64,000 nucleotides of DNA, taken from contig CAZRWP010000001.1 in the NCBI GenBank assembly GCA_964603945.1, forward strand, positions 184,547-248,546, read 5' to 3'. The translations under genes and the position numbers were made by a program. Positions 6,640 through 54,760 of the stretch are shown one piece after another (position 1 is the stretch's first letter; each line of letters opens with the position of its first letter). Source of the stretch: an uncultured Pseudomonadales bacterium. GTDB taxonomy: Bacteria; Patescibacteriota; Microgenomatia; UBA1400; UBA1396. Under the pieces are notes generated by a model. That model did no database searches, was not told the origin of the DNA, and saw only the letters and a list, made by a program, of their open reading frames with translations.

Positions 6640-6732
6640 TTATTTAAAAGCTATTTTTTGGGTTAATTTCTTTTCATAATTAATGTTCACTGCCCTGTTG
6701 TATCGAATCAACATATTAGGTAGACTTTAATT

Positions 6733-9195
6733 GTGAATGCTCTAAGCACCAGAATAATTTTTATATTCACGCTTATCCTAAGTTTTTTTGTATTCACGAA
6801 ACAAACATTAGCCCAAACTTGCCAAGGCTTTATAACTTGCGAGGAATGGCATCAAGTCTATAAGTGTTCTAACTCAGGTGATAATTGCACTCCGACAGCT
6901 CCTTTGCCCTGCGGATTCACCGGTGGCTCATGCCAAGTTACAAACATCTCTGATCGCTGGAATGAACCATGTAATAAAAATCCGGGATTTTGCCAATTAG
7001 CTTGCCCGCCCGGAACTACCAAGCTATCTGATACCTGCAATTGGTATACCCCGCCGACTCCACCCACTCCCCCTACACCAGCCTGTGGCGATGGCTACTG
7101 CAACGCCAGCATCGGTGAAAACTGCGCCACTTGCGCAGGAGACTGTGGTTCCTGTCCCATTGACGATGGTAATAGTGGTGGCAGCGGTGGCGGTAATTGT
7201 GTTAGCGACTACTGCGCTGGGGCTGACCAATGTTACTCTCAAGGTGGAACGACAGGTGGCGCGGGGCCACGTCCTTCAGGAGGCAATTGCTCAACGGGAA
7301 CCGTAATGTGCTGTGTGCCATCCGGAGGTGGGGGTCCTACTATGCCTAATTGTGCCGCGCCTCAAAATCTAACTGGTAGGTGTGAAGTGTATGACACTTA
7401 CATGCGACTCCTTTGGGAATGGACCTCACCTTATGCAGATCTATACAACGAGGTTCAGTTTACCAATGACCCAACTTTTAGTTCCACAATTTACCAAGGG
7501 GTGAGAAACCACGGCGTTACTTCTTTCCCTAGCCAGTACCATGACTACCGTGGCTTACCACCTACATATCCAGACGGTCATTTCCCAGTAGACACATATT
7601 ATCTACGAGTCAGGACCTCATCTGGAAATTGGTGTGTGCCCACCACCTGGGGCAATCCTTACGCTCTGCGCCCAGAAAACTGTACAGATTTCCGCACCCC
7701 AAACGCTACCCCAACCGTGAGTATTACCGCTCCCCCTAGCGGCTCCACCTATCTACAAGGAGACACCGTCACCATCTCCGCTTCAGCCAACGACAGCGAT
7801 GGCACCATTACCTCCATAAGTTTGTACCGCGGTAGCACGCTCTTTTGGGGAATGTCTAACCCGTCTTCTACAGCCAATTACTCCATTAGCTTCCCTTGGT
7901 ATAACATCCCTGCCGGTAGCTACTCCATTACCGCTAGAGCCACAGATGATGACGGCGCGATTGGTGTCTCGACCCCGGTCAGTTTCACCGTCAACGCTTT
8001 CCAAAACATCTCTGGCAATGTCTACATTGACCCTAACGCCACCGTTAACTTAACTACTGGTATCTGCACCGGTAACGCTGGGGCTTTAACCGGCGCTGAG
8101 GGCAGTTTGGGAGTGCGAGTAACCAATACTATTGGCGGTGGCACGTACAACTCTACTGTTAGTAGCGGCAATTGGTCAGTTACTACCCCGCCCGCTTCAG
8201 ACGGACGATTCCGGGCGGCACTACTAGGCCTAGACCCTAACTTTGTCTGTGCTTGTCCAGCGGGGTGTAGTTACTCCGCGGGCATTGACTCTCCTCAATC
8301 TAATGTCAACTTCTACTTAACCCCCACCGCTGACGCCTGGTGGCAGGTCGAAGGCGGGCCCATTGCCGCCTTTGCCAGTACCGGGCAAAGAGCCTTTAGC
8401 ACTCTTATTCCCGAGTTTTGCTCTCTGCCTACCTGTAACCCCTACTTAATTGTCAACCAGAATGGCGGTGACAGTGAGGGCTACGTGTTGACTGGCGGCA
8501 GTTACGTTTCTGGCACGGATCAAATTGACGAAAGTGGCCACAACTGGGTGGCGCAAATGAGTAGTCCTCCTGACAAGCGCCAGGACTACCACTACTTTAA
8601 GGTTTTGGCTCTTTTGCCCACTTCGCCAGAAAGTGACTTCATTCCCTTTGATCCACTTGAAGGCACCACGACGAGCTTGGACAAGCCAGACAAGGACCAG
8701 GAGTTTGTCAATGGCGATCAGGCGCGAGCTTACTTCCACGCTGGGGAAGCGGTCATTGACTCACCCTGGAGCGTTGAGTCGGATGAAAAACTGGTCGTAC
8801 TAATTGATGGTGACATTTCCATTGAAGAGCCCATCACGGTCGAGACGGGTGGCTTTTTTATGCTGGTTGCCTCTGGCGACATTACCTTTGATGCCTCCTT
8901 GGGGCACGACGACCTCAACAATCTTGAGGCCGTCGCCGAAGGCGTGTATGTCGCCGATGGCGTCTTAACCGTTGAAAGCGCTGAAACAGGCGGGGACAAA
9001 CGCTTCGTTGGTGAAGGCACCTTTGTGGGCTGGAGCGGGGTGAAATTGGAGCGCGATTATGATGACGGGGCAGGCCGGCGCGCCCTAAACAATGTTTCAG
9101 CAGTGGAGTACTTTAGATACCGGCCCGACTTTTTGACCGCCGCTCCGGAAGAATTCATGCGCTCGCGTTACAGCTGGCAGCAAGTGAATCCTTAG
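6733..9195 (+). CDS. secreted cysteine-rich surface protein with PT-linker and bacterial Ig-like (Big) domain
   Basis: GTG start; signal peptide IIFIFTLILSFFVFTKQTLAQ; about 35 Cys in first 250 aa; PTPPTPPTPPTP linker; segment PTVSITAPPSGSTYLQGDTVTISASANDSDGTITSISLY...SYSITARATDDDG matches Big/Ig-like fold pattern. Confidence 0.6.
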   Translation: MNALSTRIIFIFTLILSFFVFTKQTLAQTCQGFITCEEWHQVYKCSNSGDNCTPTAPLPCGFTGGSCQVTNISDRWNEPCNKNPGFCQLACPPGTTKLSDTCNWYTPPTPPTPPTPACGDGYCNASIGENCATCAGDCGSCPIDDGNSGGSGGGNCVSDYCAGADQCYSQGGTTGGAGPRPSGGNCSTGTVMCCVPSGGGGPTMPNCAAPQNLTGRCEVYDTYMRLLWEWTSPYADLYNEVQFTNDPTFSSTIYQGVRNHGVTSFPSQYHDYRGLPPTYPDGHFPVDTYYLRVRTSSGNWCVPTTWGNPYALRPENCTDFRTPNATPTVSITAPPSGSTYLQGDTVTISASANDSDGTITSISLYRGSTLFWGMSNPSSTANYSISFPWYNIPAGSYSITARATDDDGAIGVSTPVSFTVNAFQNISGNVYIDPNATVNLTTGICTGNAGALTGAEGSLGVRVTNTIGGGTYNSTVSSGNWSVTTPPASDGRFRAALLGLDPNFVCACPAGCSYSAGIDSPQSNVNFYLTPTADAWWQVEGGPIAAFASTGQRAFSTLIPEFCSLPTCNPYLIVNQNGGDSEGYVLTGGSYVSGTDQIDESGHNWVAQMSSPPDKRQDYHYFKVLALLPTSPESDFIPFDPLEGTTTSLDKPDKDQEFVNGDQARAYFHAGEAVIDSPWSVESDEKLVVLIDGDISIEEPITVETGGFFMLVASGDITFDASLGHDDLNNLEAVAEGVYVADGVLTVESAETGGDKRFVGEGTFVGWSGVKLERDYDDGAGRRALNNVSAVEYFRYRPDFLTAAPEEFMRSRYSWQQVNP

Positions 9196-13101: not shown

Positions 13102-13190
13102 GAAGGATCATCCTTGCCCCTCCGCTTGCCTGGAAGGATCATCCTAGGATGATCCTTCTTGAGGAAACTACGGGCAAGGATGATCCTTTC
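13102..13190. repeat. ~90-bp nested palindromic intergenic repeat element, copy 2
   Basis: Same element as 10588-10680 and 61848-61935. Confidence 0.85.
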
Positions 13191-13250
13191 TTACAAACAA
13201 GCTTCATTCGCCATCAAACGACTAACAATTAAAAATATTCTTTAAACTCC

Positions 13251-14397: not shown

Positions 14398-14997
14398 TTA
14401 TTTAGCAGTCTCTGTCTTAGCTTTGGTTTTGGCTGAAGCAGACTTGCTGGTTGGCTTTTTAGCCACTTTTTTTGCTGACTTTTCCTCAGTTTTAGCTGAA
14501 GATTTTTTACTTGTTTTGTCAGATTTTTCACTAACCTTAGCTGTTTTTTCGCTTTTCTTAGCGTTGTCTTTGCCTGCTTTAGTTTCAGCTTTTTTGGCTG
14601 AGTCAACTTTTTTAGCAGTTTCTGCAACTTCTTTTTCAATTGGCTGACTAACTAACTCAAGCTTAACCATTGAGGAATCATCACCGCGGCGGCGACCTAA
14701 ACGGGTCAAGGTTGTAAAACCAGACTTCCGATCTTTTAAGGCTGGTGCCACACCATCAACAATTCGGTTAACGATTTGTTTAGAGCCGAAGAAGTGCTCC
14801 AAAGTGCGACGAGCATTTAAAGTCCCAGGTTTGGCCTTGGAAATAACTTTGTCAGCTAAACGACGAATAACTTTGGCTTTGGCTTCGGTGGTCTCAATGG
14901 CGCCTTCTTCAAACAGCGATTTCAGCATGCCTTTAAACAAAGCTTGACGCTGTTTGGTATTTCGGCTGAGAGCTTTACCTTTTACACGATGACGCAT
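14398..14997 (-). CDS. rplQ: 50S ribosomal protein L17 with ~80-aa Lys/Ala/Ser-rich C-terminal extension
   Basis: L17 core MRHRVKGKALSRNTKQRQALFKGM...TLTRLGRRRGD; position after rpoA. Confidence 0.9.
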   Translation of the reverse strand: MRHRVKGKALSRNTKQRQALFKGMLKSLFEEGAIETTEAKAKVIRRLADKVISKAKPGTLNARRTLEHFFGSKQIVNRIVDGVAPALKDRKSGFTTLTRLGRRRGDDSSMVKLELVSQPIEKEVAETAKKVDSAKKAETKAGKDNAKKSEKTAKVSEKSDKTSKKSSAKTEEKSAKKVAKKPTSKSASAKTKAKTETAK

Positions 14998-45322: not shown

Positions 45323-46549
45323 CTATTTCTGCTTTAAAATATTGCTCTCAATACTGGCGAATAAGCTAGCGCGCTGGGAGTGGTGCGTTTGAGCAATTTC
45401 TACCAGTCGATCAATTAGATTTTCATAGGGTAAACCGCTAGCTTCCCAAAGATAATAAGCCATTGAGCCAGGCGGAGAATTCACCTCTCCGACCCAAAAT
45501 TCTTCCGTACTGGGATTGGCGAAGAAATCAATTCGGGCAACGCCAAAACCATCTATGAGCTTCCAGATAAAGCAGGCGGCGTCCTGCAGGGCAGACTGCA
45601 AATCAGGCGAAATTGGAGCCGGAATGCGACGCAACAAACCCGCCATGCCTTGACTGCCTTTGCCTCCGGATTCATCTGCATTGTCTAAATCACCCGATTT
45701 ACTCTTGCCAATGCCGCGTTCATATTTGTCGGCGTAACTTAGAAATTCGTCCAATTGGATTGGCTGTTCGCTGATCGAGGCCTCACAATCATCAGCTGTG
45801 CCCAGCACCGCAATATTAACCTCAATGGCATCTGGAGGAGCCGCCTCTTCAACCACGATCCGGGTATCAAATTGCGCGGCCGAAGCTACGGCGCCGGCCA
45901 GTTTGTCAGGCGTAGTAATCCTGGTAATGCCGACACTGGAACCCAAACTAGCTGGTTTTACAAATAATGGATACTCTAAGTGGCTGATGTGGTGCTCGAC
46001 TTCTGCCTGGCCTTTCTCCCAATCAGCAGTAGTAAACCAACCGTAGTTAGTAACATTCAGTCCGGCCGCTTCCATAACTTGCTTGGTGATTATCTTATCG
46101 ATGCCGACGGCCGCGGCGACCACCCCTGGCCCCACGTAGGGAATGTTTAGCAGTTCAAATAAGCCAGCCAGCGTACCGTCCTCGCCGCGGCCGCCATGCA
46201 CACAAAAAATCGCAGTGTCAATTAAAGAGTGAAGCTGTAGAGCGTCAGATTGACCAGGCGAGACTTGTTTAGACAGGGCTTGTTCGGACAGGGCTTGAGC
46301 AGGATAAGGTGTGGCCGTGACCAACTGACGATCTTCACCAGCCGGATCTTGCAGATCTAAATTCTGAAAAGTTTTAATATTTGTTAAGGACTCACCAGTC
46401 CACCAGCGCCCTTGCTTATCGATATATAGTGGTACAACTTGATATTGATTGCTGACGCGATTCATTAGCTGAGTTGCCGTAATAATTGACACCTCATGCT
46501 CGACTGATTGAGAGCCAAAAACGACTCCGATTTTAGTAGGTTTAGCCAT
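45323..46549 (-). CDS. ddl: D-alanine--D-alanine ligase (ATG at 46549; ORF-track start 46582 is TTG)
   Basis: N-terminus MAKPTKIGVVFGSQSVEHEVSI…, ATP-grasp motifs; longer than typical due to internal insertions. Confidence 0.8.
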   Translation of the reverse strand: MAKPTKIGVVFGSQSVEHEVSIITATQLMNRVSNQYQVVPLYIDKQGRWWTGESLTNIKTFQNLDLQDPAGEDRQLVTATPYPAQALSEQALSKQVSPGQSDALQLHSLIDTAIFCVHGGRGEDGTLAGLFELLNIPYVGPGVVAAAVGIDKIITKQVMEAAGLNVTNYGWFTTADWEKGQAEVEHHISHLEYPLFVKPASLGSSVGITRITTPDKLAGAVASAAQFDTRIVVEEAAPPDAIEVNIAVLGTADDCEASISEQPIQLDEFLSYADKYERGIGKSKSGDLDNADESGGKGSQGMAGLLRRIPAPISPDLQSALQDAACFIWKLIDGFGVARIDFFANPSTEEFWVGEVNSPPGSMAYYLWEASGLPYENLIDRLVEIAQTHHSQRASLFASIESNILKQK

Positions 46550-46600
46550 GTGGATAAAGTATAGCAGAGGGTGATGCTTCAAAAAGGATCAACAATTGTA

Positions 46601-46700
46601 AGCCTCACTTACACTGAGTGCACCTCAAGGAAGCCTCACCCAGGTGAGGCTTCCTTGAGGAAGAGTGCGTGTAAGTAAGGCTTACAATTGCCAATTCCAA
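46601..46700. repeat. 100-bp nested perfect palindrome (outer ~20-bp stem CAATTGTAAGCCTCACTTACAC / GTGTAAGTAAGGCTTACAATTG; inner 18-bp stem CCTCAAGGAAGCCTCACC-CAG-GTGAGGCTTCCTTGAGG) at left boundary of GC-rich island
   Basis: Read directly; followed by two ~33-bp imperfect direct repeats at 46728-46797. Confidence 0.8.
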
Positions 46701-46814
46701 TCTTCCAGGTAGAAGATCTTTGATTGAGTCAGCTACGAGTGGTTTCTGGAAATCCTGTTTGACCGCGTCAGCCACGAACGGTTCCTGCAACTCCTGAGTG
46801 ACCCCCAAACCCAG

Positions 46815-47207
46815 GTGCACGCGCTGGAAGAATCCCATAACAACTACGGCGAATATCTGTTTGTGACACTCAGCCGTCCGAGCGGCAAGCAGCGTGTGTT
46901 TCTGACTTTTTACGGCCTGGGGTACCACGAGTATCGCGAGCGCTGGGTCTATGAGGACTGGTACTGGTACGAATCAGTGCGGGGCGCGGGTATGGAGCAT
47001 CGGCGCGTGCCGCGCAACGCCGCCAGACAGCAGATTGACGAGCGGTACCGGGAGTGCCAGGCAAGCGCTGACCGCGATACCCAGACCAACCGGGGACGCA
47101 TCTTCGAGCTCCTGGCCGACCTGACAGATGAAGACGGCGCCTACACGGAGATGGAAGACTTGCCTTATTGGTTGCTGGATGACGATGAGGAAGGCGACGT
47201 GAGATAA
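46815..47207 (+). CDS. hypothetical acidic protein (130 aa, GTG start), island-encoded
   Basis: ORF in GC-rich segment; competing antisense ORF 46870-47562 judged artefactual. Confidence 0.35.
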   Translation: MHALEESHNNYGEYLFVTLSRPSGKQRVFLTFYGLGYHEYRERWVYEDWYWYESVRGAGMEHRRVPRNAARQQIDERYRECQASADRDTQTNRGRIFELLADLTDEDGAYTEMEDLPYWLLDDDEEGDVR

Positions 47208-47209
47208 GT

Positions 47210-47629
47210 ATGAGCAAGGAAGACACGCCGCTCCAGATGGATATGTTCTCCGGGAAGCTGGTGGACAACCGGACGCGCCAGCAAAAGCGGCAAGACAAGA
47301 CGCGGGAGCAGCCCAAGCAAATCGAGATGTTTTCCCAGCGGGAGATTGCCCAGTTTGGGGTCAATCCAAATCCACTCATGCCGCTCTCACCCAACACCAA
47401 GCTGCTGCTGATTCCCGAAGACCCGCGCACCGAGGAGGAAATCGAGCAGGACAGGCAGCAAGAGGCCGAAAAACGGACGGCGCGGATGTTTGCTGAGCCG
47501 CCGCCCGCACAGGAGACCAAGTCACCGGAGACTATTAATGCCAAACTCGTGCCGGACACCACCGCGCTCGCCCTTGTGCCCAGGGGCGTTGTCGCGGTCG
47601 TCGTTTACGGCTTTTTCTCGCAGATTTAG
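47210..47629 (+). CDS. hypothetical disordered protein (139 aa), island-encoded
   Basis: ATG 3 nt after previous stop; Q/E/R/K-rich. Confidence 0.35.
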   Translation: MSKEDTPLQMDMFSGKLVDNRTRQQKRQDKTREQPKQIEMFSQREIAQFGVNPNPLMPLSPNTKLLLIPEDPRTEEEIEQDRQQEAEKRTARMFAEPPPAQETKSPETINAKLVPDTTALALVPRGVVAVVVYGFFSQI

Positions 47630-47720
47630 CCGTTATAATGGCCTTAGCGTGCTTGCTCCACTACCGGTCATCAGCGTTTCTCATCGAAACCGAAGGTACA
47701 GACTCCCACAAAGCTGGACA

Positions 47721-50700
47721 ATGAACCGGCGGGGCAAGTACGCCAGATTGCCGCTTCTCATTGGCGCGTTACTCCTTCTGACGCTCATTCCGTTTGCTCT
47801 CTTTCGCGGCTCCCAAGCTCCGGAAGCGGAAGCGGCGTGGTGGGACAACTCCTGGCGCTATCGCAAACCCATCCAGGTCACCAACAACACGACTCAGCAA
47901 ACCAACGTCTACATCACCCTCACTCTAGACACCTCAGATACCACCAAGTTCCAGGACGATTGCGGTGACCTGCGCTTCACCAAGCAAAATGGGCAAGTGT
48001 TGCCGTACTACATCGCTAGTGGCTGCGGTACAGCGTCCACTAGCGTACATGTTCAGCTTGATACGTTCCCGGCTGGAGCGCAGACGCTTTATGCCTACTA
48101 CGGGAATCCGTCAGCGCCAAATGGATTTGCTAATAACGACTTCCTGATGGAAGCCACCAACTACACCGTAGGTGGAACCGGAAGTGAGGAAATCGCTCCT
48201 GGTCCAGTTGCTTACTGGAAGTTTGATGAGGGAAGCGGGAGTACCGCGCATGATTCGGCGGGGAGTAATAACGGTAACATCAACGGCGCAACGTGGGTGA
48301 GTGAAGATCAATGTATAGATGGCAAGTGCTTAAATTTTGATGGATTGGACGACTCTGTATCGGCAACCAATCCTTCAAACTTTTGCACACTTCCTTCAAT
48401 AAGCTACGTTGCTTGGGTAAACAGCGACCTTGCTACCCAAAACAACTCTTCTGGAATCATCGTGAATCGACAGTTCAAGCTGACAGCGGGATCGGATTAT
48501 TCCTCTCGTATCTACCTTGAAGACGGTAGCGATGCCACTGTCTTAAAGCAAGTCTCAACGGGGATTCCACTCAATCAAAATGAATGGGATTTTGTGGCAA
48601 CCACTTTTGATCTCGCCGAGGGAAAAATCCACATCTATCTCAACGGCAACTTGATGGCATCAGAATCATTTGATTCCGCCGGACTGACTCTCAATGATGA
48701 TTACTGCACAGCATTGGTCTTGGGAAATGATTACGATAGTAGTAATCGTAAATTTGACGGATACCTTGACGAAGTCAAAATCTTCCCCTACGCCCTGACC
48801 GAAGATGAAATCAAAGCCGAGTACAACCTTGGGGCAGCCGCGGTGATCGGTACCGGGCCAGCGGCTCCGCCGCCATTGGGTGGCAACCTCGATGACTCGC
48901 TGGTGGCTCACTGGGCATTTGACGAACAATCAGGCCAGACCGCGCACGACAAGGTAGGCACCAATCACGGCACCTTGGGCGCGGACACCAATCCGGGGAG
49001 CGATGACCCGACCTGGAAGTCTGTGAGTGAGTGTAAGGTGAATGGGTGTTTGGGGTTTGATGGTACGAACAACTTTATCACCAACTCAAGTCCCGAGAAC
49101 TTGCCAACTGGATCTCAAGCCACTTGGACGTGGTGGTCAAAATCAAGTGCAACGGGATGGAGTGCAAACGCGCTTCTTGGAGACAATAGGTCTCTATGGT
49201 CGATTAGGCAATCGAGTAATTATCTTTATCTAGGGCTAGGAGGAGAAGAGTCTGGCGCAACAGCATCTTTCTCGACGGATGTTAACTGGAGTCATTATGC
49301 TATCACCTTTAATTCTGGTAGCGCTTCTTTCTTCAAGAATGGTGAGATGATCGGCAATTACAGCTTCGCCAACACAACAGTACCAGCGCTTAGCACTCTA
49401 TATGTTGGGAGACGATCGACTGTTGCAGCCCCTTATTTCTTTAACGGCCTCATCGACGAAGTCAAAATCTACAACACCGCCCTCACCCCTGAGCAAGTCC
49501 TCCAGGACATGAACGCCGGCGCCAGTCTCACGGTGGGCGTGGGCGCCGACGAGGCCGACGAGATCATCGACGGCGCGGGCGCTCCGCCGATTGCCGAGTG
49601 GAAGTTTGACGAGAACCAGGGCACGACCGCCTACGACACCAGCGGCAACGGTAACGACGGCACGGTTAATGGAGCGACCTGGAAATCGGGTTGTCAGCAG
49701 GGAGCGTGCTTGGAGTTTGATGGGAATAACCGTATATCTATATCAAATGATCCAATTCTATCCCCTAATCAAGTTACAGTAGGCGTATGGGCAAGACTAT
49801 CTCCTTCATTCAATAGTTGGGGTTATTTAGTTGCCAAAGAATGGGGTTATTCAGGATATGCACTTTATGTGGCTGCGGATAGAAGACCTGTATTCATAAC
49901 TAACGATGGTTCATCTCCGCAAAATATTAATTACGGAAGTACCAATTTGGAGAAAGGCAAATGGTACTATTTGGTTGGAACCTATGACGGAACCAAATCA
50001 ACGATCTACGTTGATGGAGTTTCTGAAAACGTTCAGAGTTTTGACATGGTTCAAAGCTCTTCGACGCTTTTCTTAGGTAATCATGGGGATAATACACGAG
50101 GTTTCAACGGCCAAATCGACCACATCAAAATCTACGACTACGCCCGCACGCCAGCTCAAATTGCCTACGACTACAATCGCGGTGCGCCCGTTGCTCACTG
50201 GAGGTTTGACGAGTGTGAAGGCACCGTCGCCCACGACTCATCTGGCAACGGCAATCACGGCACGATCAACATCGGCCCGTCTGGGAGCCAGAGTACGGCA
50301 GGAACGTGCCAGACTTCCGGCGCGTGGGCCAATGGGAAAGATGGGAAGTTTAATGGGAGCTTGAATTTTGATGGGACGGATGATGTGGTTAACCTTGGCA
50401 ATCCTTCGCGCATAGCAAACTTGAGCACCAATATTACTGCGGCTGTTTGGATTAAACCGACATCTGGCGGTGGAGTATTGTACCGAGGAGCAGGTTCAAA
50501 TTATAATTATTTATTGCAGATTGAGTCTAGCTCACAAATAAGACTAAGGCTTTGGGAAACATTGGGAGATGCTGGATCTGGCATCAATTATCTGGTGCCT
50601 GGACTTAACCTATTTAATTCATGGAATCACATAGCTTTTACTTATGACGGTAATAGTGTGAAAATTTTCGTTAATGCGGAATTGAAAAGCAACACACCCC

Positions 50701-50879
50701 GTTCCGCACCTATCGCAACTGGTGAAACTACCCAGCTGGGTGAATATCCAGGTGGAGGACCTCGCTATTTAACTGGCCAAATCGACGACGTGCGCATCTA
50801 CAACTACGCCCTGTCACCAGCCCAAATCTTGAAGGTCTATAACCAGGGCCAAGCCGTTAACTTCACCCGCGCGAACTGA
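47721..50879 (+). CDS. large membrane-anchored surface protein: N-terminal signal anchor, DUF2341-like domain, four LamG_3 (concanavalin A-like lectin) domains
   Basis: Start chosen at ATG 47721 (MNRRGKYARLPLLIGALLLLTLIPFALF); AWWDNSWRYRKPIQV…DCGDLRF motif (DUF2341-like); four repeats each beginning W(K/A/R)FDE..G.TA.D.SGNGN.GT.NGATW and ending DEV(K/R)I(F/Y).YAL(T/S)..(E/Q)I. Confidence 0.75.
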   Translation: MNRRGKYARLPLLIGALLLLTLIPFALFRGSQAPEAEAAWWDNSWRYRKPIQVTNNTTQQTNVYITLTLDTSDTTKFQDDCGDLRFTKQNGQVLPYYIASGCGTASTSVHVQLDTFPAGAQTLYAYYGNPSAPNGFANNDFLMEATNYTVGGTGSEEIAPGPVAYWKFDEGSGSTAHDSAGSNNGNINGATWVSEDQCIDGKCLNFDGLDDSVSATNPSNFCTLPSISYVAWVNSDLATQNNSSGIIVNRQFKLTAGSDYSSRIYLEDGSDATVLKQVSTGIPLNQNEWDFVATTFDLAEGKIHIYLNGNLMASESFDSAGLTLNDDYCTALVLGNDYDSSNRKFDGYLDEVKIFPYALTEDEIKAEYNLGAAAVIGTGPAAPPPLGGNLDDSLVAHWAFDEQSGQTAHDKVGTNHGTLGADTNPGSDDPTWKSVSECKVNGCLGFDGTNNFITNSSPENLPTGSQATWTWWSKSSATGWSANALLGDNRSLWSIRQSSNYLYLGLGGEESGATASFSTDVNWSHYAITFNSGSASFFKNGEMIGNYSFANTTVPALSTLYVGRRSTVAAPYFFNGLIDEVKIYNTALTPEQVLQDMNAGASLTVGVGADEADEIIDGAGAPPIAEWKFDENQGTTAYDTSGNGNDGTVNGATWKSGCQQGACLEFDGNNRISISNDPILSPNQVTVGVWARLSPSFNSWGYLVAKEWGYSGYALYVAADRRPVFITNDGSSPQNINYGSTNLEKGKWYYLVGTYDGTKSTIYVDGVSENVQSFDMVQSSSTLFLGNHGDNTRGFNGQIDHIKIYDYARTPAQIAYDYNRGAPVAHWRFDECEGTVAHDSSGNGNHGTINIGPSGSQSTAGTCQTSGAWANGKDGKFNGSLNFDGTDDVVNLGNPSRIANLSTNITAAVWIKPTSGGGVLYRGAGSNYNYLLQIESSSQIRLRLWETLGDAGSGINYLVPGLNLFNSWNHIAFTYDGNSVKIFVNAELKSNTPRSAPIATGETTQLGEYPGGGPRYLTGQIDDVRIYNYALSPAQILKVYNQGQAVNFTRAN

Positions 50880-50898
50880 GTTCCGCTCCTTTCCTCGT

Positions 50899-51282
50899 AT
50901 GAGATCGCTACAAATGGCTCTTGAACCATCGCGCAGACATCTGCTACTGTCATCCTTGCCCGTGCGCAAGGAGTGGAAACAACGTCCGGCGCCCATCACT
51001 TTTGAGCAAGTCACACGTCTTGCTCAGGAATCGCTGTTGCGCCAGGGCTCCCACCCACCGACCCTGATCGTTGATGGTTTCAAAAACCCCATTGTTATCC
51101 AAATGGATAGGCTTGCGCCTACGTATGAGGCAAGACTGCAACAGATGTACTTTACTGGTCAGGCGCTATCCCACGAAGGAACTGCCGGTCGGGTGCGATC
51201 CGTCTACTTCGTCACAGAAGCGTGGCTGAGCCAGGCGCGGGAGGGAAAATTGTCTGGTATGCGACCCTCGCAAGACCCGTAG
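50899..51282 (+). CDS. hypothetical protein (127 aa), island-encoded
   Basis: ORF with ATG; no motifs. Confidence 0.35.
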   Translation: MRSLQMALEPSRRHLLLSSLPVRKEWKQRPAPITFEQVTRLAQESLLRQGSHPPTLIVDGFKNPIVIQMDRLAPTYEARLQQMYFTGQALSHEGTAGRVRSVYFVTEAWLSQAREGKLSGMRPSQDP

Positions 51283-51297
51283 CGCAAAGAGGTCCTG

Positions 51298-51495
51298 ATG
51301 GTCAATGGACTGGATCGGTTAATCGGTAAGTCACGCCGAGTCCATCTGGCGATTTTCGAAATGGTGCGTGACGAGCAAGGCACTTTGCGGGAGATTCGCG
51401 ACTATACCTTTCCGGATGATCCGGAGTTGGTTGCCGACACGCCGCTGCTGGAAGCGTTTTTGACCGGGTTTTGGACAAAAGGCGGGTTGCGGTAA
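51298..51495 (+). CDS. hypothetical small protein (65 aa), island-encoded
   Basis: ORF only. Confidence 0.25.
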   Translation: MVNGLDRLIGKSRRVHLAIFEMVRDEQGTLREIRDYTFPDDPELVADTPLLEAFLTGFWTKGGLR

Positions 51496-51547
51496 TCGAG
51501 GGAAAACAGTAAGGATCGTGGTGATTTTGCGATTTTCATAGCCGTAG

Positions 51548-51814
51548 CTAGCGGGTGTCTTTTCGTTTCTTCTGCTTCGCTTTATTGCTTGCCGGTTCAG
51601 TGCGCACTATTAGATCAAGGGTAGCAATTCCCAAAACTGCGGCCAGCCTGTCGAGAGTGTCGAGATCTGGACGGACGACTGGTTCAGTTTTTAGACGGTG
51701 TAAAGTGCTTAATGAAATACCCGCTTTCTTGGCTAGTTCAGTGTAAGTTAGCCGGCGTTGATTCTCGACTTCCCATCTAAATATGTGTTTGTCAATATCC
51801 AGCCAATACGGCAT
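51548..51814 (-). CDS. XRE-family helix-turn-helix transcriptional regulator (88 aa)
   Basis: HTH segment LTYTELAKKAGISLSTLHRLKT typical of XRE/Cro-C1. Confidence 0.7.
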   Translation of the reverse strand: MPYWLDIDKHIFRWEVENQRRLTYTELAKKAGISLSTLHRLKTEPVVRPDLDTLDRLAAVLGIATLDLIVRTEPASNKAKQKKRKDTR

Positions 51815-51874
51815 ATAGCTCCTTGGTTTTTCTACTTGTTTTGTAATATTTCTTTGAAATTATATCAAACCAGG

Positions 51875-52504
51875 TCATAGGTTCAACCGCTTCACCACCT
51901 CCTCAAGCTCATCGTCGGTAACTCCCAAGTACCGCTTGGTGTACGCTAGGCTGGCGTGGTTGAGCTTGTACATGATGAGCGCCAGATCCACCCCACTCAT
52001 GCGGGCGTGATAGCCCCAGGTCTTGCGTAAACTGTGTGTGCCGAAGTTGCCACGCAAGCCAATATCCGCGCAGATTCTGGTAATAAACTTCCAGGCTTGC
52101 CCGCGCTTGATTGGCTCGCGAAAGTTGTTCACCCTGACGTTGAAAAAGACGTAGTTGTCCGGATCGCTCGCAACAGCCGGATAGGCAACCAGATACTCGC
52201 CGAGTGCCTCCCGAATGCTGTCGTTAATGACAACCTCCTGCCTCTTGCCCCGCTTCTCTTCATTGATAGCAAAGCGGCGGCGGATAAGGCCCCGTTCATC
52301 TAAGAAGTGATGAATGCGCAGATTGAGTAAGTCCGAAATGCGCAGCGCGGAGTTGATCCCTACGGTAAACAGCAGCAGGTCGCGGTAACGACCTTGTCCG
52401 CGCAGTTGGTTCTTAATCTGCGCGATGCGCTTGCGGTCGCGGATGGGTTCAACAAAGTTCATATTTTCTTCGGGTGTTTGTGTGGCGTGGTTTGTAGTGA
52501 ACAC
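51875..52504 (-). CDS. small tyrosine site-specific recombinase/integrase (catalytic domain only, ~196-209 aa; ATG at 52462, upstream GTG at 52504)
   Basis: Catalytic residues R (NSALRISDL), HxxR (THSLRKTW), C-terminal Tyr region (LAYTKRYLG). Confidence 0.75.
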   Translation of the reverse strand: MFTTNHATQTPEENMNFVEPIRDRKRIAQIKNQLRGQGRYRDLLLFTVGINSALRISDLLNLRIHHFLDERGLIRRRFAINEEKRGKRQEVVINDSIREALGEYLVAYPAVASDPDNYVFFNVRVNNFREPIKRGQAWKFITRICADIGLRGNFGTHSLRKTWGYHARMSGVDLALIMYKLNHASLAYTKRYLGVTDDELEEVVKRLNL

Positions 52505-52532
52505 AACCGCTGTATAGAGCCAATGTGTTCAC
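52497..52532. promoter_or_regulatory. inverted repeat GTGAACACA-N18-TGTGTTCAC overlapping the recombinase 5' end; candidate operator or recombination core site
   Basis: 9-bp perfect arms read directly. Confidence 0.4.
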
Positions 52533-52710
52533 TAAGAACAGCCTATCAAACGCAGCTGGCCGTTACAAGCACCGATTTACCGGGGATTTTCAGTAATAGT
52601 AGACTTAATAGATATCGTGTTTACTTGGGTGTTTGAGTGCAGTGATTGGGGTGGTCGCTGTGGTTAGGTGATTGATTGTGGTCGCACCAGCCGCTACACT
52701 GACCTCAGTT

Positions 52711-52953
52711 ATGACAGACGCAACAGCCACGGCAGATACGCCACCTAACACAATCACCCCGATCACTATAACCGCCACGGAGCTTCGCAAAAGTCCTGGT
52801 CAGTTCTTGGATCGCGTGTTTTATCGCGGCGAGAGCTTTGTCGTGGAGAGGGCAGGGAAGCCAATGGCGGTAATTGGGCCGATCAACGATATGGAGGCTT
52901 ACGAATCAGGAGTTCGAGAGATGAAAAAAGACACACCAAGTCTCCATTTATAA
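52711..52953 (+). CDS. Phd/YefM-family antitoxin-like protein (ATG at 52711; TTG at 52672 possible)
   Basis: …ITATELRKSPGQFLDRVFYRGESFVVERAGKPMAVIGPINDMEAYE… resembles YefM N-terminal fold pattern. Confidence 0.55.
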   Translation: MTDATATADTPPNTITPITITATELRKSPGQFLDRVFYRGESFVVERAGKPMAVIGPINDMEAYESGVREMKKDTPSLHL

Positions 52954-52960
52954 AGGTCAT

Positions 52961-53299
52961 ATGACATACACCGAGTTAGCAAAAATCGCGATGGATACGA
53001 GAAAGCTGTTTGAGAGTTATGAGAAACAGAGTACTGGAAAAACCTGGGGCACTGAGGAGCTGTTGATTGGCTTGGTCACTGACGTTGGTGATTTAGCACG
53101 ATTGATTCTTGCTAAAGAAGGTTTTCGAGCGGCGGATAAAGACATTGATAAGGCCATGAGGCACGAGTTGGCAGACTGCTTCTGGGCAATTATCGTGCTA
53201 TCAGAAAAATACGATATCAATCTCGAAGATGCGTTGGTAGAAATGAGTAAGGATATCAGAGAAAAACTAAAGTCTTTTAGTGAACAAAGAATTACGTGA
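52961..53299 (+). CDS. MazG-like (all-alpha NTP pyrophosphohydrolase, YpjD-type) protein
   Basis: EELLIGLVTDVGDLARLI…MRHELADCFWAIIVLSEKYDINLEDAL matches EExGEL…E(E/L)(G/A)D.LW..LCLAN MazG-domain pattern; RBS AAAGG; 8 nt after Phd-like gene. Confidence 0.6.
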   Translation: MTYTELAKIAMDTRKLFESYEKQSTGKTWGTEELLIGLVTDVGDLARLILAKEGFRAADKDIDKAMRHELADCFWAIIVLSEKYDINLEDALVEMSKDIREKLKSFSEQRIT

Positions 53300-53323
53300 G
53301 GGTCCTTTCATCAAGCGGTGCAA

Positions 53324-53710
53324 CTACCGCTCACAATTCTCATGGACTTTCACAGGTAACTTCTTATACTGCTTGGCCGCGGTCAGGCTCAACCCAAACT
53401 TGCGCGCTTCGGAGAACACCACCGGCAAGGCGGTCGTCACGAACTGCTGCACTTCCTCGACAAACAGGTAAAACGGCGCAATCGCCGCGTTCTCGTCGGC
53501 GCGCCGCGTCATAGCCGCCATCTGGAAATCGGTGATCAGCATCGCGCCGAGGTTGGCCTGCTCGCTGCGCGTCTCGTCGCTGTTGAGGTTCGCCAGAAAA
53601 ATCTTGCCCTCGTCCAGAATGGCTTTGAAGTCCAGGCGGTGCGGGTGGCAGACCATGTTGCGCACCGCGCTGTTGCGGTAGAAGATGCGGATGAGGGCTT
53701 CCCCTCTTGG
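53324..53710 (-). pseudogene. C-terminal fragment of a TraG/VirD4/HerA-type (DUF87-like) conjugative ATPase; 5' end truncated at island/ldh junction
   Basis: Open frame extends to stop at 53711 without a credible start; FYLFVEEVQQF (Walker-B-like hhhhDE) and SEARKFGLSLTAAKQ (…RKyGv.l.laTQ) motifs typical of the C-terminal part of these ATPases. Confidence 0.5.
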
Positions 53711-53742
53711 CTAAAAGCTAATGCTTATGCTACGCTGACCTC

Positions 53743-54693
53743 ATGCAAAGAGAAAATTTTAAGGTTGGAATAATAGGTTGCGGCAAGGTCGGCATGACCA
53801 CGGCATATGCCCTACTTTTAAAAGGTTTGCCCACGGAGCTCGTTTTGGTTGACCGCAAAAAGGAGTATGTCGAGGGCGAAGACCTCGACCTCGAGCACGG
53901 GATGCCTTTCATGCAAAAGGCCATCATTACCGGCACCGAGAATTACGAAGACTTGCGCGAGGCTGACGTGGTGATTTTCACAGCCGGCGCCGCACAAAAA
54001 CCGGGCGAATCGCGTCTGGATCTGACCGCCAAAAACAAGGCGATTGTTGAAGAAATCATCCCAAAAATTCTGCAATACGCACCCTCAGCCCTCATCATTA
54101 TGGTGACAAATCCGGTCGATGTCTTGACCTTTCACGCCAATCAAGTTGCACAGGCAATCAGTCAAGCCGGCACAGCCAACGTCCGGCCAGGCCAAATTTT
54201 TGGTTCAGGTACTTTGCTGGACACTTCGCGTTTCCGCTTCCACTTGTCGGAAATGCTCAATCTGCATCCGCGTAGTATTCACGCCTATATTTTGGGCGAG
54301 CATGGCGACAGTTCCTTCCCGACTTTGCATTCCGCCACTGTGGGTGGTCAGCGCCTAACCACTCTGCCGGATTTTTCCATGGAAATGGCTGAGTCAGCTT
54401 ACGAGCAAGCCAAGAACGCCGCCTACAAAATTATTGAGGGCAAAGGCGCGACTTATTACGCCATCGCCACCGTTCTAACCCACATAGTAGAAGCAATTCA
54501 TCATGACAACCGTTCGGTTTTACCACTTTCAACACCCATCAATGATTATCATGGTCACAGCGGAGTTTCTTTGAGCGTGCCTTGTGTCATCAGTCGGCAG
54601 GGAATTGAGCGTACATTGGTAATTGATTTATCTGATGAAGAAAAGGGTAAGCTCGCCCACTCCGTCGACACCATTCGGCAATATCAAGGATAA
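53743..54693 (+). CDS. ldh: L-lactate dehydrogenase
   Basis: GIIGCGKVG Rossmann motif, LDH active-site signature ILGEHGDSS, 316 aa. Confidence 0.9.
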   Translation: MQRENFKVGIIGCGKVGMTTAYALLLKGLPTELVLVDRKKEYVEGEDLDLEHGMPFMQKAIITGTENYEDLREADVVIFTAGAAQKPGESRLDLTAKNKAIVEEIIPKILQYAPSALIIMVTNPVDVLTFHANQVAQAISQAGTANVRPGQIFGSGTLLDTSRFRFHLSEMLNLHPRSIHAYILGEHGDSSFPTLHSATVGGQRLTTLPDFSMEMAESAYEQAKNAAYKIIEGKGATYYAIATVLTHIVEAIHHDNRSVLPLSTPINDYHGHSGVSLSVPCVISRQGIERTLVIDLSDEEKGKLAHSVDTIRQYQG

Positions 54694-54760
54694 ATCGACC
54701 CCATTCGGCAGTATCAAGGTTAAGCTAACACCATTCGGCAGTATCAAGGATGATCAGATA
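54671..54760. repeat. three tandem 30-bp units (19-bp conserved CCATTCGGCARTATCAAGG + 11-bp variable) starting in the last 7 codons of ldh
   Basis: Units at 54671, 54701, 54731. Confidence 0.75.

Follow-up and report, generated by a model that had tools for sequence, protein, structure and literature searches.

Between ddl and ldh, two housekeeping genes of a CPR bacterium, lies a block of about 7 kb that the original prediction took for a decayed integrative element, and this leads us to ask what kind of mobile DNA it is, where it came from and whether it can still move. We studied it within a contig stretch of 64,000 nucleotides (hereafter the window). All named RpoB relatives of this genome are Patescibacteria, the best being Woesebacteria at 79%, in agreement with the CPR host that had been proposed; among the matches listed for a GroEL query against genome contigs there was only a Patescibacteria match at 65%, without synteny, and an ldh query against the same contigs returned no match. 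The block was predicted to be GC-rich and compositionally distinct, and both hold. Positions 46601-53742 have a GC content of 51.6%, versus 46.0% for the rest of the window, and are its highest-GC 7.1-kb stretch; their tetranucleotide distance of 0.0218, compared with 0.0104 +/- 0.0012 (maximum 0.0136) in equal-sized windows elsewhere, lies about 9 SD out and makes them its most deviant 7 kb. The composition is thus foreign, although the GC shift is uneven, reaching 55-60% only at 46.75-48.2 kb. GC3 is host-like (0.45) in the XRE and MazG-like genes and 0.71-0.77 in orf130 (the orf175-family remnant, at 0.73), orf139 and the recombinase gene.

The flanks are ordinary host genes. On the left, ddl (D-Ala-D-Ala ligase; 45323..46549, minus strand) has its true start at the ATG at 46549 and encodes 408 aa, a product already in the record in exactly this form with its Dala_Dala_lig_N/C domains; an extended -10 box (TGnTATACT) upstream of it is conserved in the window and in the related contigs L093 and L116. 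On the right, ldh (L-lactate dehydrogenase; 53743..54693, plus strand; Ldh_1_N and Ldh_1_C domains) is preceded by 46 bp of host DNA (53697..53742), presumably its promoter, in a context identical in L001, L002 and L003. In L093, whose ddl is 63% identical to that of the window, and in L116/L117, labelled Woesebacteria (RpoB 79%), the gene order is PBP, cmk, small membrane protein, ldh (minus), ddl (plus), and the two genes stand adjacent and divergent with a spacer of 89-100 bp. Since ldh and ddl are back to back in these two CPR relatives, the sequence between them in the window, approximately 46593-53696, is a true insertion, as had been predicted and as the alignment to relatives was meant to decide.

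It may be asked whether the insert was joined to the CPR contig only by the assembler or in binning, as misplaced Chloroflexota mobile DNA. In the co-occurring Anaerolineae related elements abound and are present in multiple copies, several short contigs stop at the island edges, one sibling ddl contig is labelled 'Chloroflexi bacterium', and the window contig is the only one that spans both junctions. Each junction is nevertheless reproduced in assemblies from other samples, the left one in L092 at 97% and the right one in L001, L003 and L118 at 98%, and the Logan contigs that flank the palindrome at the left edge overlap as expected, which makes such an artefact hardly credible. The island interior was also recovered in L112 and L113. 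The block has the marks of a genomic island in being absent from the syntenic site of relatives, deviant in composition and equipped with mobility genes (a tyrosine recombinase and a coupling-ATPase fragment); flanking att direct repeats and a tRNA target are missing. No repeat is common to the two island edges, no tRNA, flanking direct repeat or serine recombinase occurs at the window insertion, and a tRNA-Cys lies 1.4 kb off, beyond ddl. When the spacers of the empty sites in L093 and L116 were compared with the window junctions, they had only a 7-mer in common, GGAAGCC, which is at chance level.

The closest relatives of the insert are found in another phylum, the Chloroflexota. Its backbone genes (orf175, orf139, orf177, the small tyrosine recombinase, Phd and the coupling ATPase) are 65-96% identical to those of elements in Anaerolineae, where the complete form reads tRNA-Glu, large serine recombinase, toxin-antitoxin, DUF2958, orf175, orf139, a slot for a large secreted protein, orf177, a cargo slot, small tyrosine recombinase, Phd, ParE pair, a second cargo slot, MOBC relaxase and coupling ATPase. 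Complete relatives (L087, L114 and the sibling-strain island L118/L119) carry Replic_Relax, a TrwB/TraD-like ATPase, an end-located large serine recombinase, toxin-antitoxin pairs and accessory cargo. The serine recombinase, of 598-685 aa, lies at the element end in L087, L114 and L119, and a Replic_Relax gene is present in L118, L087 and L089; the window island has neither. One of these copies (L087) sits on the chromosome of Aggregatilinea lenta, in a 2.9-Mb contig of the deposited assembly. Another, L114, is Aggregatilinea-like in its flank, with a PyrF at least 90% identical to that of A. lenta, and there the 3' end of a tRNA-Glu(CUC) adjoins the serine recombinase gene; in A. lenta this tRNA site carries no element. 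Members of the recombinase, TatC and ParA clusters bear Bellilinea or Anaerolineaceae labels, those of Bellilinea coming from metagenome bins in which mis-binned mobile DNA is possible. T4SS genes were not seen in the element copies examined, and going by these copies the family looks mobilizable rather than self-transmissible.

We therefore favour, with a probability of about 80%, the reading that the island is an internal piece, now immobile, of a larger integrative mobilizable or conjugative element whose family has its natural hosts in the Anaerolineae (Aggregatilinea, Bellilinea), and that it is lodged in the divergent ldh-ddl promoter region of a CPR bacterium related to Woesebacteria. 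In the window, the element is cut within orf175 on the left and within the ATPase gene on the right, and has a nonsense codon in orf177. A relaxase, an intact coupling protein and an end integrase with att sites, which a functional MOBC-type IME or ICE would have, are all missing. Of the decayed integrative element first proposed, the mobile origin and the decay stand, while the notion of a whole element gives way to that of an internal piece whose two ends both lie within genes.

At the left end, the orf175-family gene (46728..47207, plus strand; listed as an ORF of 130 aa at 46815-47207) has no normal start. By alignment some 27-45 N-terminal codons are gone, and residue 1 of the listed ORF aligns to residues 40-47 of the 175-aa homologues. 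Its product is 88% identical to that of L089 and 65% to that of A. lenta (L087); an AF2 model (pLDDT 92.8) found no significant match among solved structures. The next gene, orf139 (47210..47629, plus strand), is apparently intact, 86% identical to its counterpart in L089 and 71% to that in L087, and 139-aa homologues likewise come after orf175 in L114 and L118. It has no Pfam, NCBIfam or PADLOC match, and its single-sequence model was too poor for use (pLDDT 62). Beyond the large secreted protein gene, orf177 (50899..51495, plus strand) is a pseudogene that reads as orf127 and orf65 owing to an in-frame TAG at 51280-51282; it is split in the same way in L112 and L113, and it is one uninterrupted gene of 177-193 aa in L001, L088 and L089.

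Two features of the left edge had been described as a 100-bp perfect nested palindrome and two direct repeats of about 33 bp. The latter are in fact a tandem repeat with a 39-nt unit (TRF; 1.9 copies, 78% matches; 46728..46803, plus strand), in frame within the 5' remnant of the truncated orf175-family gene: it encodes VSYEWFLEILFDR / VSHERFLQLLSDP, and its second copy is conserved coding sequence. The nested palindrome exists and is far outside chance (DNA fold -40.2 kcal/mol, z = -11.4), although it is not perfect. It covers 98 nt at the ddl-side junction (46593..46690), with 48-nt arms around a 2-nt centre that are 85% complementary, a mismatched block separating perfect outer (13 nt) and inner (17 nt) blocks. 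There is no second copy in the window, and the right edge holds no partner. Elsewhere it was found only in L092, a sibling contig, and at contig ends in L004-6 and L112-113; apart from these sibling-strain contigs, no counterpart turned up in the related elements at the loci compared, nor does any similar long palindrome lie beside the serine recombinases of L087, L114 and L119. We have thus discarded the left-edge features as att sites, the tandem repeat being a coding remnant and the palindrome having neither a right-edge partner nor a counterpart in related elements. Reading the island as an internal fragment leaves this palindrome unaccounted for.

The palindrome also has a part in a different view, implicit in the original prediction, in which the island is a functional small integrative element, inserted and excised by its 195-aa tyrosine recombinase with the palindrome as attachment site. 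The enzyme is intact with a complete catalytic domain, the 17-nt perfect arms around a 2-nt core resemble a recombinase site in a highly non-random structure, and assemblies break at this point. These contig breaks are, however, all in Logan assemblies, where an artefact induced by the palindrome is a possible cause. The ldh edge holds neither the palindrome repeat nor any att-like sequence, element genes are cut at both edges, the palindrome is missing from all related elements, and complete relatives carry the recombinase in mid-element, with ends set by the serine recombinase and tRNA-Glu. Such an element is very unlikely.

The recombinase itself (51875..52462, minus strand; listed ORF 51875-52504) had been predicted to be a small tyrosine recombinase, and its homology is clear: Phage_integrase (PF00589) matches at 3e-22 with 79.6 bits, above the cut-off of 27.1, over model positions 14-170 of 172. 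The catalytic R...HxxR...H/W...Y residues are present (ALRISD, HSLRKT, NHASLAYTKRY), as read by eye from the translation without a structure-based alignment. The protein is intact and consists of the catalytic domain only, beginning at about residue 16-30, and it lacks the N-terminal core-binding/arm-binding domain of classical phage and ICE integrases. XerA and XerD matches cover their C-terminal domains only and lie far under the family cut-offs. Its 2288 homologues at 75-96% identity include many labelled Anaerolineae or Bellilinea, and its closest annotated relatives are genes of about 190 aa on 2171 Firmicutes plasmids, about 42% identical over full length. Relatives in viral contigs reach at most 39% identity, and those in the phage collection at most 38%. 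Since it lies in mid-element in all complete relatives and the element end has the serine recombinase, the role of integrase of the island, implied by the prediction, is unlikely for it. It probably did not make the insertion in the window, and, by its position and distant plasmid homologues, it is more likely a resolution or rearrangement enzyme. We also considered and rejected a phase-variation invertase of the FimB/FimE type: PRK09871, with a cut-off of 222 bits, scores 29, there is no convincing inverted repeat pair, and L112 and L113 are collinear with the window.

The predicted XRE regulator (51548..51814, minus strand) matches HTH_26 (3.8e-12) and HTH_3, as expected, and has its own promoter-like site, TTGAAC-16-TG-TATAAT, at 51886-51859. 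It sits in the cargo slot downstream of the recombinase gene, a position that is empty in L089, occupied by CBASS in L001 and L088, and filled by other genes in L087 and L114. An integron-like cassette slot was rejected, as no conserved repeats flank the interval between the recombinase stop and the orf177 stop. PADLOC gave weak capH and HTH_VI matches for the XRE gene and, beyond weak HTH matches, no defence model for the genes of the island itself. On the other side of the recombinase gene, alignment of six elements reveals a conserved non-coding block (52463..52671) between it and Phd, with an inverted repeat, GTGAACA...TGTTCAC, at 52494-52531; this block is a candidate operator or recombination site.

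The predicted Phd-like/MazG-like pair was correct in its first member and borderline in its second. The Phd/YefM-type antitoxin-like gene (52672..52953, plus strand) matches PhdYeFM at 1e-7 with 32.0 bits, above the cut-off of 29.8. Over residues 1-73 it shares 61-79% identity with the Phd copy that lies divergently to the recombinase gene in L001, L087, L088 and L089, and the backbone homology stops at about residue 73 (nt 52883). The MazG-like gene (52961..53299, plus strand) encodes 112 aa, a candidate all-alpha NTP pyrophosphohydrolase that falls just under the Pfam cut-off (3e-4; 21.4 bits versus 22) and matches YpjD (2gta) at E = 0.002. It is missing at the same position in L001 and L118, and is a strain-specific module in place of the ParE pair, Ymh and relaxase.

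At the ldh edge lies the internal fragment of a VirD4/TrwB-like coupling ATPase (53324..53696, minus strand), of about 110 codons. The ORF at 53324-53665 has no Pfam match and is 79% identical to residues 660-758 of the 886-aa TrwB/VirD4-like ATPase of A. lenta (L087), itself a weak match to TrwB_AAD_bind (2.4e-4) and TraD. Nucleotide homology reaches 53696, 46 bp short of the ldh start codon, so the 5'-truncated conjugative ATPase described at this edge is real. About 650 N-terminal and 125 C-terminal codons are gone, leaving residues ~650-760 of 886; the siblings L001 and L003 retain the full 225-aa C-terminal piece and part from the window at 53367. At its far end the sibling island encodes an ATPase of 710 aa, which was considered as the missing N-terminus, displaced by circular permutation, and rejected: it is a full-length paralogue of another type, 41% identical to CPR ATPases of the L007 type and 31% to that of the element.

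The ATPase gene is cut at the same nucleotide in all sampled strains. This, with both ends lying inside genes and no att site or tRNA, would also be expected if a naked DNA fragment, for instance from lysed Anaerolineae and taken up by CPR competence machinery, had arrived already truncated and been fixed by illegitimate recombination. The sibling strain L118/L119, however, has at this very ldh junction an island that spans at least 22 kb, with the serine recombinase end, a relaxase and many cargo genes. We take this to mean that the ancestral insert was large and nearly complete on one side, so that the window form is best read as the product of later loss and replacement, and entry as a naked fragment is unlikely.

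Under the favoured reading of an internal fragment, a single ancestral copy of the element would have reached the CPR lineage, through conjugation or uptake of DNA, and inserted at a non-canonical place where no tRNA marks the junction. Before the sampled strains diverged, the ATPase gene would have lost its 5' two-thirds; afterwards the island would have been reshaped in each strain by deletions and by homologous exchange with related elements. The case for a single ancestral insertion is drawn only from the breakpoint on the ldh side that the strains have in common. Between the window and L001 the flank is 98% identical, recombinase and Phd 87%, orf177 84% and the rest unrelated; compared with L088, the 3' end of the LamG gene and orf177 are 95% identical and recombinase and Phd only 84%. 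The window island could presumably no longer move alone. Its intact genes may still act, namely those for the secreted LamG protein, orf139, the XRE regulator with its own promoter, the small recombinase and the Phd and MazG-like pair.

The largest of these genes (47721..50879, plus strand) encodes the predicted 1052-aa surface protein, and Pfam finds the expected DUF2341 followed by four Laminin_G_3 domains. The protein is intact, has a single hydrophobic segment near the N-terminus (residues 7-31) and lacks an LPXTG motif, and its DUF2341, Laminin_G_3 repeats and N-terminal signal or anchor place it among secreted DUF2341/LamG proteins. Over its C-terminal 258 aa it is 98.8% identical to the product of a truncated gene in L088, a contig labelled Bellilinea. 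Full-length homologues come next, at 41-50% identity, one of them (P0123) lying in the Aggregatilinea element L114, and the named homologues, about 30% identical, are for the most part from CPR bacteria. The gene occupies the variable slot for a large secreted protein, and at least four other copies of the element family carry such a protein. That it is cargo, as predicted, is therefore well founded, and it is evidently a recurrent passenger of the family and not a native CPR gene. Given that it is cargo and that two further large secreted proteins are encoded in the same window, its proposed role as an adhesin and the main host-attachment determinant is speculation. In the sibling island a diversity-generating retroelement (DGR), with an RT, bAvd and a TR/VR pair in which 15/15 mismatches fall at template adenines, targets the C-terminal end of a secreted LamG-type protein encoded in the matching slot. 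Such diversification would fit a ligand-binding surface role for this slot. The window island itself contains no RT, Avd or TR/VR pair.

The sibling island also carries CBASS and other defence genes, and CBASS, PD-Lambda-3-like, ApeA, McrBC, a DGR and large secreted LamG proteins are seen here to circulate between phyla on a single element backbone. To our knowledge, the hosts of CPR bacteria outside the oral Saccharibacteria are nearly all unknown, and a mobile element that two organisms have recently shared is among the few clues to neighbours that sequence alone can give. Module identities to the Bellilinea/Aggregatilinea copies of at least 90% in amino acids and up to 95% in nucleotides raise the tentative and rather doubtful idea that the CPR population keeps re-supplying a strain-variable surface-protein and defence platform by recombination with Anaerolineae-resident elements, the palindrome being a scar or site of non-canonical recombination. 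If this were true, DNA would be flowing continually between an epibiont and its physical host, and the host prediction would be a Woesebacteria-like CPR bacterium living on Bellilinea-type filaments. The locus shows in any case that foreign DNA, from 7 to more than 22 kb of it, is tolerated in a streamlined CPR genome within a promoter region common to two core genes.

Among known systems, the small recombinase resembles the plasmid 'site-specific integrases' of Bacillus, Enterococcus and Lactobacillales (~185-200 aa) and the FimB/FimE-type invertases in its length class and in lacking an N-terminal core-binding domain; like the plasmid genes, to which it has the full-length similarity given above, it is internal in its replicon and not terminal. 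It differs from FimB/FimE in matching the NCBIfam invertase models at 6.8e-7 only, far under their cut-offs and less well than Xer models, and in an island that has no invertible segment or flanking inverted repeats. The Phd gene recalls Phd/YefM type II modules in its domain and in the small same-strand gene 8 bp downstream, but this partner is MazG-like and not Doc, YoeB or ParE, hence not a known Phd partner, and in related elements the Phd gene stands by itself, divergent to the recombinase gene. Surface proteins of CPR bacteria that are diversified by DGRs were reportedly described by Paul et al. in 2017. They have also been the subject of a survey (PMC8144416), and the sibling island, with its RT, bAvd and TR/VR aimed at a LamG-type protein, is of this kind; the window LamG protein differs in having no CLec/FGE-sulfatase-like C-terminal domain.

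As a whole, the element family is most like the IMEs and ICEs described for Firmicutes, which combine a relaxase of the MOBC class (Replic_Relax, PF13814), a VirD4-type coupling protein and a serine recombinase (PMC5357655). The complete relatives carry all three and one copy adjoins a tRNA gene, whereas the window copy has lost relaxase and serine recombinase and keeps some 110 ATPase codons. MOBC relaxases beside t4cp genes are already on record in Patescibacteria genomes (PMC12102498), as are hundreds of genomic islands in 125 genomes, amounting to up to 13% of genome length (PMC12455944), so a single further island is not surprising. Like those, the present one is deviant and strain-variable and brings defence and surface genes into a streamlined CPR genome. 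It differs in that a donor lineage can be named, the Anaerolineae, with modules up to 95% identical in nucleotides, and in that it can be recognised as a fragment of a defined larger element.

Between ddl (left) and ldh (right, Pfam Ldh_1_N/C) lies a genuine genomic island with clear boundaries, left over from an integrative mobilizable element. The original prediction of a compositionally distinct stretch of about 7 kb was upheld by both measures: island GC (46601-53742) is 51.6% against 46.0% in the rest of the window, no other 7-kb stretch of which is higher, and the tetranucleotide distance between island and remainder is 0.0218, compared with 0.0104 ± 0.0012 (maximum 0.0136) for equal-sized windows elsewhere. 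The rise in GC is uneven, reaching 55-60% only at 46.75-48.2 kb, and GC3 is 0.71-0.77 in the element backbone genes orf130, orf139 and the recombinase, 0.45 in the XRE and MazG-like genes, and 0.41-0.54 in host genes. Pfam agreed with the proposed tyrosine recombinase (Phage_integrase, 3e-22), XRE regulator (HTH_26/HTH_3) and 1052-aa surface protein (DUF2341 plus four Laminin_G_3 domains); of the proposed Phd-like/MazG-like pair, the first member matched PhdYeFM, while the MazG match of its neighbour fell below threshold.

Alignment to two CPR relatives, a check proposed at the outset, shows ddl and ldh adjacent without the insert. Both relatives retain the neighbourhood (PBP, cmk, a small Lys-rich membrane protein and ldh on one side; ddl, GroES/EL and rpoBC on the other), with ldh and ddl divergent and back to back; the gap between them is 89 bp in L093 (ddl 63% identical) and 100 bp in L116/L117 (RpoB 79% identical, labelled Candidatus Woesebacteria), whereas 7193 bp separate the two start codons in the window. 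The host is a CPR bacterium, as first proposed, since all RpoB relatives bearing a name are Patescibacteria. An assembly accident at the junctions is ruled out by their recurrence in sibling contigs: the stretch from ddl through the palindrome at the left edge to 150 bp into the island is repeated at 97% in L092, and the ldh-side junction at 98% in L001/L118 and L003, while the interior is found again in L112 and L113. A ddl protein at least 90% identical to that of the window (45323-46549), NLW72118.1, lies on a 2.6-kb contig deposited as 'Chloroflexi bacterium'; this contig is probably mis-binned, since RpoB puts the lineage in Patescibacteria, possibly because both organisms co-vary in abundance. 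At the 3' end of ldh (54665-54751) there are three tandem 30-nt copies with 84% matches, such that the last eight codons and the stop codon recur twice more downstream and every copy is stop-terminated; the same repeat occurs in sibling contigs L001-L003.

The left edge differs from its first description. The palindrome (46593-46690), taken to be perfect over 100 bp, has arms that are 85% complementary; it is strongly structured (z = -11.4), unique to this lineage, and centred on perfect 17-nt arms flanking the dinucleotide CA, a layout that presumably resembles that of serine-recombinase att sites. The two supposed direct repeats of about 33 bp are a coding 39-nt tandem repeat that shares its reading frame with the orf175 remnant; the conserved sequence is that of copy 2, and the lost N-terminus has been replaced by copy 1.

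Homologues of the 195-aa recombinase number 2288, many at 75-96% identity, and those with names are from Anaerolineae (Aggregatilinea lenta at 89%, Bellilinea sp., Anaerolineales). The contexts of these homologues, together with tblastn and blastn of the window genes against them, defined a backbone order: a large serine recombinase (598-685 aa), two small genes, a variable slot (PIN-Phd, or ApeA plus an ATPase), a gene of 128-132 aa, DUF2958, orf175, orf139, a slot for a large secreted protein (LamG, Kelch-like or WD40), orf177, a cargo slot (empty, CBASS, OLD nuclease or others), the small tyrosine recombinase, Phd, a ParE-like pair, a second cargo slot (Gabija-like AAA_15/OLD-TOPRIM plus UvrD-type helicase genes, Ymh/PD-Lambda-3_B, or methyltransferase genes), Replic_Relax, and an 886-aa ATPase. 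Replic_Relax denotes relaxases of class MOBC (PMC5357655), and the ATPase matches TrwB_AAD_bind at the cut-off (2.4e-4) and TraD models weakly. L114 lies in an Aggregatilinea-like chromosome, judging by a PyrF no less than 90% identical to that of A. lenta. The element there abuts tRNA-Glu(CUC), beginning precisely at its 3' end, with the serine recombinase gene adjoining; this tRNA is at L114 4227-4299 and L121 12975-13048, and the corresponding site in A. lenta is empty. A backbone with a relaxase and a TrwB/TraD-like ATPase, and a serine recombinase at the tRNA-Glu end, therefore define an integrative mobilizable element family of Anaerolineae, possibly a conjugative one. Full-length ATPases of 710-816 aa and DUF87/TrwB_AAD_bind type, one of them C-terminally extended, also occur in a contig labelled Patescibacteria (L007 819-3269, chromosomal, near groES/EL) and within the island of the sibling strain (L119 6575-8707); they are 41% identical to each other and just 31-33% to the element ATPase.

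Both ends of the window copy are truncated. The predicted conjugative-type ATPase remnant at the ldh edge was borne out: 53324-53696 codes for residues ~650-760 only, and homology ends 46 bp ahead of the ldh ATG. At the left end, the orf175 homologue is missing its start together with about 27-45 codons at the N-terminus. No serine recombinase, DUF2958, relaxase or ParE pair was found in the window island. With both end genes truncated and these others absent, what remains is an internal fragment, immobile by its own genes; the proposed decayed integrative element holds as to mobile origin and decay, but not as a whole element. Within the fragment, orf139, the LamG protein, XRE (with a promoter-like site TTGAAC-16-TG-TATAAT), the recombinase, Phd and the MazG-like gene are intact, and orf177 is split by an in-frame TAG at 51280, as in L112 and L113.

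A sibling-strain contig (variously L001, L118 and L119) has an ldh flank 98% identical to that of the window and the same ATPase breakpoint on the ldh side, followed by an island of at least 22 kb. This reads, in order, 225-aa ATPase C-terminus, relaxase, PD-Lambda-3_B-like gene, ParE pair, Phd, small recombinase, CBASS (SMODS, SAVED), DUF2188, orf177, a 773-aa LamG protein with a CLec/FGE-sulfatase-like C-terminus, a diversity-generating retroelement (DGR; RT, bAvd), two small genes, orf139, full-length orf175, DUF2958, a 710-aa ATPase, ApeA (PDC-S58), serine recombinase and McrBC. The DGR is complete (L118 10919-14855), comprising the 773-aa LamG plus CLec-like target, RT (357 aa), bAvd (117 aa), VR (13109-13204) and TR (14760-14855), and 15/15 mismatches lie at template adenines. 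Beyond the serine recombinase, a near-perfect 40-bp palindrome (L119 937-976) occupies the interval between McrBC and a 111-aa gene. The backbone blocks in common are just 84-87% identical between window and sibling, in contrast to 98% in the host flank, while the 3' end of the window LamG gene with orf177 is 95% identical to the Bellilinea-labelled contig L088; the island is therefore mosaic. This pattern probably reflects a single ancestral insertion that was later reshaped by deletions and by homologous exchange, the partners being related elements.

The small recombinase consists of the catalytic domain alone, in which R, HxxR and H...Y residues can be read from the sequence, and lies mid-element in every case. 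All elements (equivalents in L087, L088, L089, L114 and L118) share a non-coding block of about 150 nt upstream of it (52463-52671), even those with a different neighbouring gene; the block includes an inverted repeat, GTGAACA...TGTTCAC, whose spacer is variable. The closest annotated relatives of the recombinase are ~190-aa genes on 2171 Firmicutes plasmids, ~42% identical over their full length, and some phages carry relatives at about 35-38% identity. Its position and distant plasmid relatives suggest a role in resolution or rearrangement and not in chromosomal integration.

The LamG protein has a single N-terminal hydrophobic segment, and no sortase motif was found in its 1052 aa; the start of the operon upstream of its gene (47721-50879) is deleted. 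No identical copy occurs outside the source genome and the contigs of siblings, and the best remaining homologues are 41-50% identical; one (P0123) lies within the Aggregatilinea element L114, and another (P0126) is on a 663,760-bp contig that is likewise recorded for orf175 and ParA cluster members. The protein is therefore a recurrent passenger of the secreted-protein slot. Its relatives with names, at ~30% identity, are CPR proteins, and given its GC3 of 0.53 the gene may originally derive from a CPR-like gene pool. A role in binding is plausible for the protein, and the sibling's DGR-targeted protein supports one for this slot. Its proposed standing as the main host-attachment determinant is not supported, as the same window also encodes secreted proteins of 708 aa and 820 aa, the latter Cys- and Gly-rich. 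These neighbour each other at 4513-9195, a second GC-rich patch (about 53%), and are further surface-protein candidates, native or acquired.

Added interest comes from a donor lineage that can be named and is cross-phylum, from cargo turnover at strain level, and from the junction palindrome. MOBC relaxases beside t4cp genes have already been recorded in Patescibacteria, where they were interpreted as acquired elements (PMC12102498).
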